From a virus (Duplodnaviria > Heunggongvirae > Uroviricota > Caudoviricetes), in the IMG/VR virus record IMGVR_UViG_2671180724_000008: 64,000 nucleotides of DNA. One strand, written 5' to 3'. The translations under genes were made by a program, and so were the position numbers. Below, in pieces: positions 312-64,000 of this stretch. The stretch's first letter is position 1. Each line of letters begins with the position of its first letter. Below the pieces are notes generated by a model. The model worked only from the letters and a program-made list of their open reading frames with translations. It ran no database searches and was not told the origin of the DNA.

Positions 312-889
312 TTCATGTGCAGCTTGGCGGCCCTATGGCCAAACATTTTGGCCGCCACTGGCATCTAAAGGTGCGCAATACAAAACAGGCTCTGGATTTA
401 ATTGAGGCCAACAAGCCTGGGTTTAAAGCATGGATGAAGCGCAATATCAAAACCTATGACAGATACCACATCCAGATCACCAATAAACAGGGCCACAAGT
501 GGTCTGTGGACGAGAGTGAATATCAGATGATGGGGCAGTCTGACAATATTGCAAAAATCCGCATTACCCCTGTTCCGCGAGGAAGTGGTGGATCTGCTTT
601 TGGATGGTTTCAGACGGTTGTTGGAGCAGTATTAATGGTTGCCTCGATATGGGTGCCCGCTCTTGCGCCTCTCGGTTTGTCACTGATGATGGGCGGTATA
701 GCGCAAATCATATCTCCGCAAGCCACTAACGAAAGTGTGAGGCAGGCGGATAACTCGAACTCTTATTACTTTGATGGACCTCAAAACACAACAAACCAGG
801 GGAACCCTGTACAGCTTATCTATGGCGAGGAAATTTTAGTTGGCTCACAGGTCGTGAGTTCTTCTATCACCATCGACCAGCTTATGTAA
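299..889 (+). CDS. tail assembly protein I-like
   Basis: 196-aa ORF overlapping the K-like stop and directly preceding the J-like gene. Hydrophobic C-terminal segment as in lambda gpI-type proteins. Confidence 0.5.
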   Translation: MSELVHVQLGGPMAKHFGRHWHLKVRNTKQALDLIEANKPGFKAWMKRNIKTYDRYHIQITNKQGHKWSVDESEYQMMGQSDNIAKIRITPVPRGSGGSAFGWFQTVVGAVLMVASIWVPALAPLGLSLMMGGIAQIISPQATNESVRQADNSNSYYFDGPQNTTNQGNPVQLIYGEEILVGSQVVSSSITIDQLM

Positions 890-44442: not shown

Positions 44443-44487
44443 ATGCAAACTGACTGCGGCTCGTTCCGCAGTCATATTTCATAGTCG

Positions 44488-45022
44488 TCACCGCTGACAG
44501 CATACACAATCAACTACCGCTGATAGCATATCGAGAGTCTATCTTACCGCTCACAGCATACTTTACTCGATTTTTTACCGCTGACAGCATACTTAAGACA
44601 TTGCATGAATAATGTGTACCGGTATGGGTATAACCAGAACAAAATTACCGCTGGCAGCATACGAAGGTCTGACATATACCATTAATTACCGCTGATAGCA
44701 TATCCAAACAAAAATTCCTCAATAAAACACCGCTGACAGCATACGTTCTATCAGGGAGCAGCAGGCAATAAATGCCTTTCACTACAAGCAATCAGCGCAA
44801 TAGCAATAGAATGTTAGTGAGCGCAAACCTATATGGAATGCACTCTTCGAGGTTAGTAACCACTGGGGAGGTATGACAGAGCATTGAGTGGTGATAGATG
44901 ATTTACCGCTCACAGCATACGTTCATCTCACTATACCGCTGGTAGCATATCTTTAACCGTTCACAGCATACTTTTCAGAAAAATAGCCGCTGATAGCATA
45001 CATTTCACCGCTGACAGCATAT
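44488..45022. repeat. iteron array downstream of repA (12 copies, incA-like)
   Basis: Twelve direct repeats with consensus (T)ACCGCTGACAGCATAC at irregular 20-45 bp spacing, in two clusters (7 + 5) separated by about 140 bp. Confidence 0.85.
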
Positions 45023-46116
45023 CAAAGCAGTTTGAGACTATTGGAAAGGATCTCAATCATCTTGATATTTTCAGGCGTCAAATTCTGCGAAAGTTCGGTT
45101 ATCTTGTTGATAATGTTCTGTTTAGCATCAATTTCCCCGGCTTTCTCATCTGGTTTTTTGGGTTCGATGTCTTCAGGTTTTGGCGGTGCGACTTTAAGTT
45201 TTGGATTACGGCTGTGAATCTGGATATAGATCGACCGCCCTCGCTTAATCTCGCTGTATTCGAGATAGCCCAAATCTTGGAGAGCTTTTAAGCCGTTACG
45301 TATAGTCTGATTCTGCGAGCTGACATTCCTGCTACTCAAATTGAGTCGCGCACGCAATCGAGCAAGCGATACCGGCGCAGGCTTGGTTGGAAGACTTTCG
45401 ATGAAGGTGTACAGAGCCTGTGCTGTTTCTTTGCGTGGTAGCTTATTGATAACCTTTAACTGCAAAAGAACCTTATGGTCAAAGCGATATAGTTCGGCCA
45501 GCTTCGGTTCTGCATAGAACACCACCGTATCTTTCTGCTCGTTGTAGTCCACGCTATTGATGAGGTGCACCATCAGAAGCGAGATCTTGTTAGAGCCGTC
45601 GACGTTCTTTTCTTCATACGTTCTCTGGAAAGACAGAGTTGTACGCATGATCTTCAAAAGACTGTTTGTAAGCCGGTCGCGGAGTGTTTTGCGGATCTGT
45701 GACGATGGATAGCCACAAAACTTCGCAAATTTCGTGATGCTTAACTCGACACGACCGTTAGGTTCGCCGTATTCTGCCAGCGAACGCACAACGCCCACCC
45801 ACGTTTTGAAATCATGATCCATGTCGAGACGAGGACCGGTTATCTTGATGTCGGAATAGCCTTCAGAACGGGCTACTTCGAGCTGAACAAGCTCCTTTGA
45901 AGCATCGATTTCATTTGGCTTGTTACGCTTGCTGTATTTTGTCCCCTTGAGCGTGGGCACGAACAACCCCAGCCGCATCAACGCAATTGGTTGGACTGTA
46001 TTGTTGCTATTAGGGACAAGTTCCCCTGTGTACAATTCAAGGGAACCTTCTTCAAAGTTGTCGAGATTATCTTCTACTTCTTTGTTATTTTTACCTTTTT
46101 TATTTTTTGTGGACAT
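45022..46116 (-). CDS. repA: RepA-like iteron-binding plasmid replication initiator
   Basis: Minus-strand ORF flanked on both sides by iterons. Start set at MSTKNKKGKNNK (ATG at 46116-46114) so that the coding region does not overlap the upstream iterons; the track start is 46236. Confidence 0.7.
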   Translation of the reverse strand: MSTKNKKGKNNKEVEDNLDNFEEGSLELYTGELVPNSNNTVQPIALMRLGLFVPTLKGTKYSKRNKPNEIDASKELVQLEVARSEGYSDIKITGPRLDMDHDFKTWVGVVRSLAEYGEPNGRVELSITKFAKFCGYPSSQIRKTLRDRLTNSLLKIMRTTLSFQRTYEEKNVDGSNKISLLMVHLINSVDYNEQKDTVVFYAEPKLAELYRFDHKVLLQLKVINKLPRKETAQALYTFIESLPTKPAPVSLARLRARLNLSSRNVSSQNQTIRNGLKALQDLGYLEYSEIKRGRSIYIQIHSRNPKLKVAPPKPEDIEPKKPDEKAGEIDAKQNIINKITELSQNLTPENIKMIEILSNSLKLL

Positions 46117-46134
46117 GTGGACACCTTTGTCATT

Positions 46135-46237
46135 CAACCGCTGACAGCATACTTGATTTGCCGCTGGCAGCATACAAAAAACAGTTGGCAGCATACGGCG
46201 AACCGTTGACAGACTATCAATTACCGCTGACAGCATA
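46135..46237. repeat. iteron array upstream of repA (5 copies, origin/incC-like)
   Basis: Five copies of the same CCGCTGACAGCATAC-type repeat, two of them degenerate, in the repA promoter region. Confidence 0.8.
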
Positions 46238-61470: not shown

Positions 61471-62064
61471 ATGATTGCAGCCGAAAAAATCAAACAGCGA
61501 AAGCGCGACAACTCTCTTCGTGACCTCTGGAGAACACCTGATTGGCTGTTTTCTGCCATTCAACGTTATCTTGGAGTGACATTTGATGTTGACGTTGCCT
61601 GCAACAAGGACAATGCAAAGCTGCCTAATTTCATAGGCATTGAGCGTGATGCTTTGAAATCTGAATGGGGACAGCCAGGTACAATTGCCTTCCTCAATCC
61701 ACCCTACTCCAAAATCTCCCCCTGGATTGATGCGGCTATACGTGAGCAGGCTCGCGGAGTTACAACAGTGATGCTAATTCCTCAATCCCTCGATACAAAG
61801 TGGTATGAGCGTGCAACAGAGTATGCGAATGAGACGATTATTCTGTCTGGTGGCCGCGTAGCGTTTGTCGAGCCTGACGTCAATTTGGGTCAGGTAGAAG
61901 TAAACATCAACCCCGGTGGCAGTATGCTCGTTGTTTTTCGAGGATTCTGTCAGGACGCTGGGCACTCTATAAGCAAGATCCCTTTGGACGTCATGAAAAG
62001 TCTGGGAGGGTATGATCCTGCGAATGTGGTCAGGAAAAAAAGACCATCAAAGAAGGCTGCTTAG
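61471..62064 (+). CDS. phage-type DNA N6-adenine methyltransferase (Dam-like)
   Basis: 197-aa ORF with catalytic NPPY motif (AFLNPPYS); small size is typical of the phage Dam family. Confidence 0.6.
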   Translation: MIAAEKIKQRKRDNSLRDLWRTPDWLFSAIQRYLGVTFDVDVACNKDNAKLPNFIGIERDALKSEWGQPGTIAFLNPPYSKISPWIDAAIREQARGVTTVMLIPQSLDTKWYERATEYANETIILSGGRVAFVEPDVNLGQVEVNINPGGSMLVVFRGFCQDAGHSISKIPLDVMKSLGGYDPANVVRKKRPSKKAA

Positions 62065-62087
62065 TTTGTTCTGGCGAGTGTAATTAA

Positions 62088-62148
62088 CCTGCTTCTGTAA
62101 ATAAATAACTACATATTAATTATTAATATACGGAAGCAGGCTGTTTTG
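62088..62148. repeat. conserved hairpin element, copy B (cctgcttc / gaagcagg stem around an AT-rich loop)
   Basis: Same 8-bp stem and similar AT-rich loop (gtaaataaataa...) as copy A at 15393..15455, followed by ctgttttg. Confidence 0.5.
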
Positions 62149-62249
62149 TATCAGAGACTCCCAGACCTGAACACCACTACAGAATCCACTAGAACCCCTT
62201 CTCAGACGCTTTAAAATCGATTTTATGAACCACTTTAAGGAAAACTAAC

Positions 62250-62480
62250 ATGTCATACCCGACCAATGTTGTTGCGCTCGTAGAGAGCGATTTTCTGGCT
62301 AAGGCTCGTGAAATGATGAAAGATCGCGAGCAGGCTTTCAACTTGTACGAATGGGCAATTAAGTGCTTGCATCTTGGGGAGCATCGCGAACTTGTTGAAC
62401 AGCTTTTAGGTGAGTTGATCAACGAGGTGTTTGCCTTGAATGTTCAACTACATGGTCGAGAAAATAATCAATCGAAATGA
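62250..62480 (+). CDS. hypothetical protein
   Basis: 76-aa ORF with start context aaggaaaactaacATG. Confidence 0.35.
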   Translation: MSYPTNVVALVESDFLAKAREMMKDREQAFNLYEWAIKCLHLGEHRELVEQLLGELINEVFALNVQLHGRENNQSK

Positions 62481-62997
62481 TAGATAAGTACAAACTATTC
62501 ATAAGATGAATTGTAAGTGCTAAGATCTGATAGTTTCCAGTCATAGACTGGAGACTCGACCTGATGGGTGGGGGTAAGCGTCACTGGCGTCAGGTTTAAA
62601 AAAGCTCACTACCAGCGTAGAACCGGTGCCGTTTAGGTGTCGGGGAAGGGGGAACCAAAGTGAGCAGAGACAAGGGTCACTTTATGATTGTCGAGTCTGG
62701 GGTGTTTCGAGAGGTTGAATCCAGTACTCCCCTTCATAAAGTGTGGGAAGATCTCGGTTCTGGGGTGCTGTCATCCATAACTTCCCAAGTCTAAGCTGGC
62801 AGTAGACTTAGACCATAGCTTTTCAGGTTATGAAACGACCAGGTTGGTGAGGAATTTTATACTCACCTCCCTGGGAGAGTATTACCTGAAAAGACAACCT
62901 CTCACTTCGTTCGAGGTGAACTTCACTCACTTCGTTCGTTCAGTTCAGGTTTATAAAAACCTGTACTGGGAAGTAATTTGTTTATTTTAATAATTAT

Positions 62998-63023
62998 TAC
63001 ACGCACGCGTGTGCGCACGCGCG
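62998..63023. repeat. 26-nt perfect alternating purine-pyrimidine tract (Z-DNA-prone)
   Basis: tacacgcacgcgtgtgcgcacgcgcg alternates Pu/Py without interruption and contains the direct repeat cgcacgcg twice. Lies about 40 bp upstream of the RNase H start. Confidence 0.6.
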
Positions 63024-63062
63024 AGGAAAAAAATAGGCGCGGCGCTTGATTCAGGAGTTTAT

Positions 63063-63653
63063 ATGACGTCGAAGACACCAGCCCGGTCGCAAGCAAAAAC
63101 TCGCAAAAAAGACAAAAACAAAAATTCTCCCCGCACCAATCCCACAACGCCTGTCGTAGAGTTCAATCCCCAGCTTAAAACCGTGAAAATCTTCAGTGAT
63201 GGCTCTTGCCTTAAAAATCCGGGTGGCCCGGGCGGTTACGGTATAGTTCTCCAGTATCGTGGTGAGGAACGCGAGTTCTCAGATGGTTTTCATAGCACCA
63301 CCAATAACCGCATGGAGATGATGGGGGCACTTATCGGGCTGGAGCGTTTGAAATATCCATGCAACGTTATTTTGCACTCTGATAGCCAGTATCTGAAAAA
63401 CGGCATGACACAGTGGATGAAATGGTGGAAACGCAATGGATGGATGACTTCTGACAAAAAACCGGTAAAGAATGTTGATCTGTGGAAGCGTCTGGATGAG
63501 GCCGCAAGTCGACATAATGTTCGCTGGAAGTGGGTTAAAGGTCACGCCGGGCATCGTGAAAATGAAATATGTGATCGACTCGCGAAGATCGCAGCTTTTT
63601 CAGCAGCAGATATGCCTCACAAGAAAGATATTGGTTTTGTTTATAACAATTAG
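63063..63653 (+). CDS. rnhA: ribonuclease HI
   Basis: Start at the ATG preceded by caggag. Motifs [28 protein letters not shown] and [14 protein letters not shown] are typical of RNase HI. Has a short basic N-terminal extension. Confidence 0.8.
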
Positions 63654-63801
63654 TAAGTAAGTATTTACCTATTATTTTAAATCATGTATCTTATCGGCGT
63701 CAGGATGACAATGTGTCGGTAAGACACAGTTCCAGGATGGAACGAGAAAGGCGGCTGGCAATCGCCAGCCGCAACTCTTTCTGACACTGGATGGAGTCCA
63801 C

Positions 63802-64000
63802 ATGGCACGTCAAACCTATTTCACTTCTGCAACTAAACGTCCTCGTTCTTTACGTCAAATTTTGGCCGAATTATTTAGCGGTCGTGTTATGTCACGTCTT
63901 GATGAACTAGAGACTACCGTTCGGTTGCTGAATGAACGTTTAGATAATCAAGCGTCAGTTGTTGCGAACGTGGGGGCGATTGTTGCCTCTGGTTCTTCAC
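63802..64000 (+). CDS. hypothetical protein, 3' end outside window
   Basis: ORF opens at ATG 63802 and runs off the window edge; a GC-rich hairpin lies upstream. Confidence 0.3.
   Translation, partial: MARQTYFTSATKRPRSLRQILAELFSGRVMSRLDELETTVRLLNERLDNQASVVANVGAIVASGSS

Follow-up and report, generated by a model that had tools for sequence, protein, structure and literature searches.

The window analysed here, a 64,000-nucleotide (nt) stretch of DNA deposited as IMG/VR record IMGVR_UViG_2671180724_000008, carries between a gene for a protein of 76 amino acids (aa) and an RNase HI gene (rnhA) a gap (62481-63062) that appears to harbor the gene of a large structured non-coding RNA (ncRNA) of about 440 nt. 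The 1.7 kb around this locus present 97-98% identity to the Escherichia phages PhiR41_1, CMS-2020a and Cyrano and ~80% identity to Salmonella phage SSU5 and Klebsiella phage-plasmids, and because of this identity the window is recognized by sequence as an SSU5/pHCM2-type phage-plasmid of E. coli. The locus lies within a nucleotide and DNA-metabolism module that includes SbcCD, NrdAB, ThyA, a DnaQ-like exonuclease and Dam. The original prediction, made from the letters of the window alone, described the gap as free of credible open reading frames (ORFs), and indeed no conserved ORF was found between the 76-aa gene and rnhA. It had also been called the longest such stretch, a rank that did not hold, since the gap comes second to fourth depending on the ORF cut-off, and both the tRNA region and the gap 44476-45021 (546 nt), which adjoins a 404-aa gene on the minus strand (45022-46236), are equal or longer. 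The functional unit is not the whole gap, as had been proposed, which is divided into a promoter segment (62481-62531), the RNA body (~62533-62976) and a less conserved spacer (62977-63062) that includes an alternating purine/pyrimidine tract. The features of the locus are collected in Table 1.

A search with the gap alone retrieved 687 PLSDB plasmids and 12 phage records, with carriers among E. coli, Salmonella, Klebsiella, Enterobacter and Citrobacter relatives, and the matches in other genera always spanned query positions 75 to about 551-577, with 88-92% identity. Among complete E. coli genomes, 232 of 5426 harbored the element, which was located on plasmids of ~100-200 kb (mostly 106-125 kb) in 232 cases and on chromosomes in 2; none of the 233 E. 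coli matches had a RefSeq annotation under the element. The sliding identity to SSU5 and a Klebsiella relative was 0.90-1.00 from ~62555 to ~62950, against 0.4-0.65 in the 70 nt 5′ of this core, 0.6-0.7 on its 3′ side and 0.7-0.85 in the flanking genes. Measured per feature, identity was 0.89-0.95 for the RNA core vs 0.74-0.81 for Dam, the 76-aa gene and rnhA, the region being better conserved than the genes around it. Divergent copies were traced through the 76-aa protein family and by motif scans, and all copies grouped into a main clade (at least 86% identical), a type represented by locus L106 (~76-85%) and a divergent clade (~68%) comprising L102-L105, L205, L211, L232, L247 and plasmids of Cronobacter sp. 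JZ38 and Enterobacter sp. CP102. Motif scans of IMG/VR, GTDB genomes and metagenomes revealed only these two clades plus the L106 type. One chromosomal copy (L112:4240-4700, E. coli chromosome CP125919.1) alternated between stretches identical to the RNA and unrelated sequence rich in GC, had an upstream gene truncated to 58 aa, and looks like a decaying or scrambled remnant.

No coding frame emerged in the relatives; the original prediction had named the emergence of a conserved one as an outcome that would speak against it. All eight ORF candidates of at least 25 aa, on both strands, carried a frameshift or stop in at least 4 of 16 representative lineages, and the broken ORFs included the 44-aa ORF annotated as CYRAN_81 in the Cyrano record, for which no Pfam or PHROG match was found. 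A small protein product was rejected because no ORF was conserved across lineages, and so was a type I toxin-antitoxin mRNA of the hok/sok kind, with no conserved ORF and no hydrophobic candidate. Judged by these comparisons, the element is non-coding.

The high degree of structure that had been predicted was confirmed by a folding energy of -155.6 kcal/mol on the plus strand (z = -3.9) vs -130.6 kcal/mol on the minus strand, and comparative alignment revealed abundant covariation. The covariation analysis was based on an alignment of 16 representatives (A1), from which L108 (~80% identical everywhere, probably a noisy assembly) and the patchy chromosomal copy L112 were excluded. RNAalifold gave 111 pairs in this alignment, 35 of them with compensatory double changes. 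In a curated structure of 102 pairs, with 98.0% of the cells paired, double changes occurred in 34 pairs vs 10.9 ± 2.3 in shuffles (0 of 500 reached the observed value), and slid controls, in which the partners were moved by 1-3 columns, yielded 1-6 such pairs. Canonical pairing was 98.0% on the plus strand vs 88.0% when read on the opposite strand (10.7% of cells G.U), and this drop assigns the RNA to the plus strand. These analyses indicate that the secondary structure is under selection on the plus strand, and conservation was high in paired and unpaired segments alike.

The body opens with a 5′ hairpin that starts 6-7 nt 3′ of the extended -10 element; 6 of 7 lineages have a hairpin there (z -2.3 to -5.5), although its sequence varies. 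Among the compensatory changes of helix 1 are CCUGAUG/CGUCAGG to CUGGUG/CACCAG and GGCAGAUG/CGUCUGCU, while helix 2 encloses, besides helix 3, the invariant G-rich GGGGAAGGGGGAACCAAAG. The long-range helix crosses helix 6 in a pseudoknot-like manner and presents one compensatory change, G-C to U-A, in L106. Of the three hairpins originally proposed, the first, TGGGAAG (62744-62750) with CTTCCCA (62781-62787), was substantiated by three compensatory pairs, the divergent lineage having AGGAAGG/CCTTCCT, and CAGGTTT-ATAA-AAACCTG exists at 62946-62963 as inverted repeat I4. The third, AAAGTGA with TCACTTT, found no support, since its arms are non-complementary in the divergent lineage and the covariation fold pairs instead GTGAGC with GCTCAC (62605-62610) and CACTTTA with TAAAGTG (62737-62743). 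Helix 12 reads ACCGGGA/UCUCGGU in the divergent lineage. A loop pairing between UUUCAGG (62821) and CCUGAAA (62885) is possible, and in the alignment this inverted repeat (I2) changes from UUCAGG/CCUGAA to UUCUGG/CCAGAA in the divergent lineage. The direct repeat noticed earlier is a 13-nt sequence, CTCACTTCGTTCG, at 62901-62913 and 62926-62938; the CUCACUUCGUUCG repeat sequence is conserved while helix 15 covaries, and the 3′ domain with its two CUCACUUCGUUCG copies admits competing folds, so that its detailed fold is ambiguous.

Upstream of this body, two conserved islands, a -35-like hexamer and an extended -10 element, stand in a poorly conserved spacer 3′ of the 76-aa stop codon. The comparison of 56 distinct upstream sequences from 143 loci revealed that the predicted promoter was conserved in 55 of them, the surrounding spacer being only 40-65% conserved. 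The pattern TGnTAnnnT was present at the -10 position in 45 of the 56, and 10 of the other 11, from the Klebsiella clade, carried TTTACG-17-TAGAAT. The promoter spacer is 17 nt long, counting the TGC extension. A simple promoter scan did not flag this plus-strand promoter, which has 8 of 12 hexamer matches. From these elements the RNA would be transcribed from its own σ70 promoter, with a predicted start near 62533, and the palindrome next to the -35 hexamer is a candidate operator or activator site. On the opposite side, conservation ends at CUGGGAAGUAA (~62976), after which a U-rich stretch follows in every lineage.

The transcript itself was sought in published RNA sequencing of E. coli LF82, the lysogen of Cyrano, with values given as log2(FPKM+5), FPKM being fragments per kilobase per million mapped fragments, in 10 samples (PMC9928086, Table 1 and S1 Table). 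Cyrano has 97% identity to the window in this region, and CYRAN_81 covers the central 135 nt of the element (PMC9928086). The values of CYRAN_81 were 6.8 and 6.9 in lysogeny broth overnight, 9.3 and 9.0 in B1, 6.9 and 6.9 in B6, 9.0 and 8.2 in MB1, and reached their maximum, 10.35 and 10.3, in MB6, a column code read as macrophage-internalised bacteria at 6 h (PMC9928086). In all 10 samples the flanks gave 3.1-5.8 (upstream gene) and 2.6-5.0 (RNase H) (PMC9928086), so that in the lysogen the region exceeds both neighbours 8- to 40-fold. An abundant RNA therefore arises inside an otherwise silent lytic DNA-metabolism module, which is what a transcript check of the predicted ncRNA should reveal. 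In the same data set, CYRAN_98, an S24 LexA/UmuD-like peptidase, rose together with the RNA region in the macrophage samples, and CYRAN_43, a 'hypothetical protein' 723-fold above background, may be another mis-annotated RNA or small gene (PMC9928086).

Table 1. Features of the RNA locus and its surroundings (coordinates are those of the window unless a locus is given).
Feature	Position	Strand	Remarks
76-aa gene, syntenic upstream neighbour	62250-62480	+	phrog_5343; acidic; three helices
Palindrome GATAAGTACAAACT (most relatives GGTAAGTACTTACC)	62483-62496		Abuts -35 on its 5′ side; TAAGTA invariant in otherwise variable spacer
Predicted σ70 promoter	62498-62526	+	-35 TTCATA 62498-62503; extended -10 TGcTAAGAT 62518-62526
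RNA body, ~440 nt	62533-62976	+	Ends approximate, from conservation boundaries and predicted promoter
5′-terminal hairpin AGTTTCCAGTC-ATA-GACTGGAGACT	62532-62556	+	Inverted repeat I7
Helix 1, long hairpin with invariant GGGUGGRGG and CUGGC	62558-62597	+	14 pairs, 5 compensatory
Helix 2, CUCACU 62605-62610 / AGUGAG 62659-62664	62605-62664	+	3 of 6 pairs compensatory; divergent lineage CCUGUU/AGCAGG
Helix 3, inside helix 2	62623-62629 / 62637-62643	+	
Helix 6, CACUUUAUGA/UCAUAAAGUG, closing an internal domain	62678-62743	+	Inverted repeat I8; 5 of 9 pairs compensatory
Long-range helix, AGAGGUUG with CAACCUCU	62710-62717 / 62895-62902	+	Inverted repeat I11; 8 pairs, 99% kept
Helix 10, UGGGAAG/CUUCCCA	62744-62787	+	100% paired, 3 compensatory pairs; encloses invariant loop GAUCUYGRUUCUGGGG
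Helix 11, inside helix 10	62763-62767 / 62772-62776	+	
Helix 12, hairpin GUCUAAGCUG-GCAG-UAGACUUAGAC	62789-62813	+	10 pairs, 100% paired, 5 compensatory
Helix 13	62814-62820 / 62826-62832	+	
Helix 14, variable AU-rich loop	62836-62851 / 62862-62877	+	
3′ domain	62895-62947	+	Long-range 3′ strand, two CUCACUUCGUUCG repeats, helix 15
Helix 15, UGAACU/AGUUCA	62917-62922 / 62942-62947	+	4 compensatory pairs (GAAACC/GGUUUC)
Terminal hairpin 62941-62968, invariant CUGGGAAGUAA, U-rich tract 62977-62988	62941-62988	+	Inverted repeat I4; probable 3′ end region
Alternating purine/pyrimidine GC-rich palindrome, 26 nt, then A7 run	62998-63023		Outside the RNA
RNase HI gene, downstream in most lineages but dispensable	63063-63653	+	Pfam RNase_H, E = 1e-44; basic N-terminal extension
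11-nt loop complement AACGAAGTGAG	L115:17101-17113 (PhiR41_1 ~32100); L250:~408-421		In elements of E. coli and S. Typhi, overlapping the ribosome-binding site of a 72-aa gene

The position of such an RNA in front of rnhA, in the same orientation and with no canonical terminator in between, could also be that of a cis-acting 5′ leader of the rnhA operon, such as an attenuator, a riboswitch-like element or a processive antitermination RNA. The fall in abundance of ~14- to 40-fold from the RNA to rnhA would fit attenuation, and a possible GC hairpin lies just 5′ of the rnhA ribosome-binding site. However, the RNA was intact where RNase H had been swapped for other genes. Examples are plasmid B of E. 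coli S56, Enterobacter pEH4236 and a Buttiauxella plasmid with convergent Gabija-like genes, besides all members of the divergent clade. By locus, the replacement is a BetT transporter in L009 and such convergent Gabija-like genes in L107, while L007 and the L102 lineage carry still other genes. Similarly, Dam is missing upstream of the RNA in L106, L107 and L109. Because the RNA persists where RNase H or Dam has been replaced, it is by this comparison tied to neither gene and is not an rnhA leader; the obligatory linkage to a regulated downstream gene that marks a cis leader was not observed, BetT, Gabija-like and other genes standing in that place. In addition, 440 nt and more than 12 helices are far above known leader sizes. 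A leader is consequently very unlikely, and the earlier designation as a regulatory locus upstream of RNase H is misleading for an element that is kept when other cargo takes the place of that gene.

The original prediction had offered three options for the region, of which an ncRNA is strongly supported, and nothing was found in support of a lytic origin or a packaging site: the conservation pattern is that of RNA-level selection on the plus strand (compensatory pairs and a G.U asymmetry of 98% vs 88%), the GC skew has no inflection, and no iterons or DnaA-box-like arrays were seen. A related but distinct proposal is an RNA-primed origin, similar to that of ColE1 RNA II or to an R-loop origin, in which the 3′ end of the RNA would hybridize in an AT-rich stretch, be processed by RNase H of the phage or the host and prime DNA synthesis at a second plasmid or lytic origin. 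The ~440 nt and strong structure resemble RNA II, with invariant G-rich tracts at 62567-62575 and 62642-62652; the RNA is succeeded on its 3′ side by an AT-rich stretch, beyond which lies a GC-rich palindrome; and the RNase HI gene is next in most lineages, inside a DNA-metabolism module. There is also a precedent in extrachromosomal mycobacteriophage prophages, which use lysogen-expressed ncRNA origins of 400-500 bp (PMC7157519). Nevertheless, elements of the SSU5/pHCM2 type already carry a RepA/IncFIB replicon, as plasmid typing demonstrated; RNase H was lost in several lineages, and the downstream architecture of purine/pyrimidine tract and AT-rich stretch is not conserved in the divergent lineage. 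No conserved antisense promoter of the RNA I kind was found, the sole minus-strand site (62539-62510) lying in the non-conserved spacer and pointing away, and the skew again lacks an inflection. Moreover, loops and single strands of the element are near-invariant across genera, unlike those of RNA II, whose divergence is compatibility-driven. An RNA-primed origin is thus considered unlikely.

The tract between the RNA and rnhA requires separate consideration. Its 26-nt perfect purine/pyrimidine alternation, noticed in the original prediction, is the longest in the window, the next having 14 nt and 200 shuffles reaching at most 23. The tract is present in the main clade and is shrunk to CGCGCGAG in the divergent lineage, and in L007, L009 and L107 sequence divergence begins right after it. 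The palindrome and A-run (62998-63030) are the exact point at which the cargo differs (RNase H operon, BetT, Gabija-like genes and others), and an alternative junction sequence, GTAATGTC.TCAATGTGCCAAAAGC, is common to L007 and L009; the tract and junction may be a recombination hotspot. The adjoining tract and exchange point, together with one phage record that begins ~300 bp upstream of the element, near the 76-aa gene start, would suit a DNA-level site with an RNA-like conservation, such as a pac or cos site, a partition or dimer-resolution site or a recombination hotspot. Against it, the compensatory changes keep pairing and G.U is allowed on one strand only, the element has its own conserved promoter and an abundant transcript, and it contains no repeat array typical of iterons or parS, all of which makes a DNA site highly improbable.

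A different function at the RNA level would be that of a long base-pairing regulator, in which the duplicated CUCACUUCGUUCG loops or other invariant strands would pair with phage or host mRNAs in the manner of P1 c4/P4 CI or prophage small RNAs. Two identical 13-nt sequences do occur in covarying stems, the RNA is expressed in the lysogen and induced in macrophages, and PhiR41_1 and pHCM2 carry a 72-aa gene whose Shine-Dalgarno sequence overlaps an 11-nt complement. This complementary site was discarded as a target: although kept in pHCM2, it is missing from the relatives in Klebsiella and Salmonella Newport, where the loops have not changed, and chance alone would produce an 11-mer match (E = 3.9). 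When the RNA was compared by blastn-short with the remainder of the window and with the other 44 kb of PhiR41_1, only chance-level matches appeared, with no other significant complementarity in the 108-kb element. Since the size and whole-length conservation also exceed what seed pairing needs, a base-pairing regulator is judged decidedly unlikely.

Taken together, the element is probably a new, independently transcribed and trans-acting gene for a large structured ncRNA, specific to SSU5/pHCM2-type phage-plasmids of Enterobacteriaceae. The RNA would start near 62533 with a protective 5′ hairpin and end near 62976-62990, and once folded it would act in trans during carriage in the plasmid state by binding a protein or another macromolecule, its role being that of a scaffold, a sponge or a catalytic RNA rather than that of a short-seed antisense RNA, an RNase H leader or a DNA site. 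The near-invariance of paired and unpaired segments across genera suggests a tertiary fold and specific contacts, not seed pairing, and the candidate contact sites are the invariant single-stranded GGGUGGRGG, UACCAGCG, GGGGAAGGGGGAA, GAUCUYGRUUCUGGGG and the duplicated CUCACUUCGUUCG.

Several points weigh against this interpretation. The sequences represent only about four independent lineages, so that a handful of shared events underlies some of the covariation counts and several helices of the 3′ domain are ambiguous. The assignment to the plus strand rests on computation and the transcript ends are predicted; no canonical intrinsic terminator was called on that strand. Action in trans is inferred solely by the exclusion of cis coupling to the neighbours, and the searches yielded no partner or target, the only candidate base-pairing target not being conserved where the loops are.

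Concerning known families, an E-value scan of 61500-64000 with Rfam 15 (4227 covariance models) gave no match in 62533-62976 other than a chance match of 15 bits to mir-375, in keeping with the absence of any family match inside the element, and no matches (E at most 10) were obtained for the elements in L102, L106, L108 and L109. ARAGORN identified no tRNA or tmRNA in the locus. The literature search found no paper that describes the RNA or prints its sequence, and its sole trace is the mis-annotation as a hypothetical-protein 'moron' (PMC9928086). The RNA would accordingly represent a new family of large structured phage-borne ncRNA, with a substantial chance of a new function.

The nearest analogues, alike in kind and not homologous, are GOLLD and ROOL, large, intricately folded and seemingly protein-independent RNAs of temperate phage genomes that are strongly conserved, were found through intergenic conservation and have no known function. 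They differ in size (~580-800 nt vs ~440 nt), in the lack of a covariance-model match to the element, in often adjoining tRNA genes, which in the window lie at 23-24 kb, 38 kb off, and in being reported with lytic growth, whereas this RNA is expressed in the lysogenic or plasmid state and is confined to one clade of enterobacterial phage-plasmids. ColE1 RNA II and the mycobacteriophage ncRNA origins share with it an ORF-free, transcribed and structured stretch of 400-550 nt, an extrachromosomal setting and expression when carried, and RNA II also the link with RNase H; they differ in that the element has a RepA replicon, a dispensable RNase H gene and loops invariant across genera, and no antisense gene of the RNA I type was detected in it. 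P1 c4/P4 CI are likewise phage-plasmid RNAs made in lysogeny within a lytic-gene region, with repeated short elements, but they are only 69-77 nt long, arise by processing of longer transcripts and target complementary sites within their own operon, whereas this RNA has ~440 nt and no conserved complementary sites, and the Rfam C4 family did not match. Finally, 6S and CsrB are also abundant, stable and structured RNAs, with which the element shares recurring conserved single-stranded motifs (CUGGG four times, CUCAC five times) and levels that vary with growth or stress condition, but there is no family similarity, the only CsrB match being a chance one outside the element, and no array of GGA in loops.

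The 76-aa gene is upstream of the RNA in every copy. Its product is acidic and is modelled by AlphaFold2 as three helices (predicted local distance difference test score 80), and a fold search with this structure gave no informative match. The family is small, with only 22 relatives in a profile search of 1.84 billion proteins, and its distant homologues have other genes directly 3′, with neither gap nor RNA, which implies that the RNA is a later addition to the clade and not an obligate partner of the protein; by this distribution the 76-aa gene predates the RNA. A Rop-like or RNA-binding partner role was considered and dropped as unsupported, the protein being acidic and its distant homologues lacking the RNA. 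Between Dam and the 76-aa gene (62088-62145) lies a long perfect hairpin, CCTGCTTCTGTA...TACGGAAGCAGG followed by CTGTTTTGT, a probable terminator; in L106 and L109 the homologous stretches produced spurious Rfam matches to plant miRNAs. The RNase HI gene carries an N-terminal extension (63063-63180) of ~40 aa, of low complexity and rich in lysine and arginine, where conservation of the gene is lowest (identity 0.3-0.5).

In the L109-L111 lineage, the homologue of the 76-aa gene (71% aa identity) precedes two RNase H genes, and between them lies a different region of ~450 nt (L109:2726-3437). This region folds very well on the plus strand (-163.9 kcal/mol, z = -5.5, vs -121.6 kcal/mol on the minus strand) and is absent from PLSDB and IMG/VR. 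Neither blastn nor nhmmer nor a covariance model built on the 5′ domain (R1) detected similarity to the RNA of the window, and a 13-mer, AGGTGTCGGGGAA, is all that the two share.

A 20-mer around the first repeat of the RNA, ACCTCTCACTYCGTTCGAGG (62897-62916; ACCTCTCACT(T/C)CGTTCGAGG), was found at ~68 loci (L116-L187) in unrelated metagenome-assembled genomes vs ~9 expected by chance. The hosts comprise Bacteroidota, Acidobacteria, Chloroflexi, Nitrospirota, Omnitrophota and Planctomycetia, and the archaea Natronomonas and Undinarchaeota; the matches in Bacilli lie in a conserved ORF and were treated as a single chance event. Most copies are intergenic and multi-copy, typically flanked by AAG...TGACA, some adjoining tRNA genes, and they often stand in inverted doublets with TGTCATTTCGAGCGAAGCGAGAAA-like sister hairpins of the form TGTCA-stem-GA-NN-loop-NN-GA-stem. 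No Rfam family covers the 20-mer, which in the AAG...TGACA orientation (minus strand here) would form a hairpin with tandem G.A pairs and looks like a small-RNA module or one similar to repetitive extragenic palindromes (REP/REPIN). The phage-plasmid RNA may have captured such a module or may mimic it.

A bolder proposal, offered tentatively and with less than even confidence, is that the element founds a new class of large functional RNAs, carried by clinically common phage-plasmids and having its own tertiary architecture, acting as a ribozyme, a self-assembling particle or a protein-capturing scaffold during carriage in the plasmid state, and that the slot after the 76-aa gene holds alternative unrelated RNAs, such as that of the L109 lineage.

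Phage-plasmids of the SSU5/pHCM2 type occur widely in E. coli, Salmonella Typhi, Klebsiella and Enterobacter and spread resistance genes, and their most strongly conserved non-protein feature is an unannotated, abundant RNA of ~440 nt that is expressed during dormancy and whose level is raised further inside macrophages. Its annotation as a 44-aa 'hypothetical protein' or 'moron' should cease. Orphan bacterial RNAs of this size with such covariation are rare, and earlier cases led to new biochemistry; in this case, the element is genetically tractable, with Cyrano in LF82 and PhiR41_1 in K-12. If the proposal is true, the new RNA class may serve the maintenance of lysogeny, defence or anti-defence, or the manipulation of the host under stress, for example inside macrophages.

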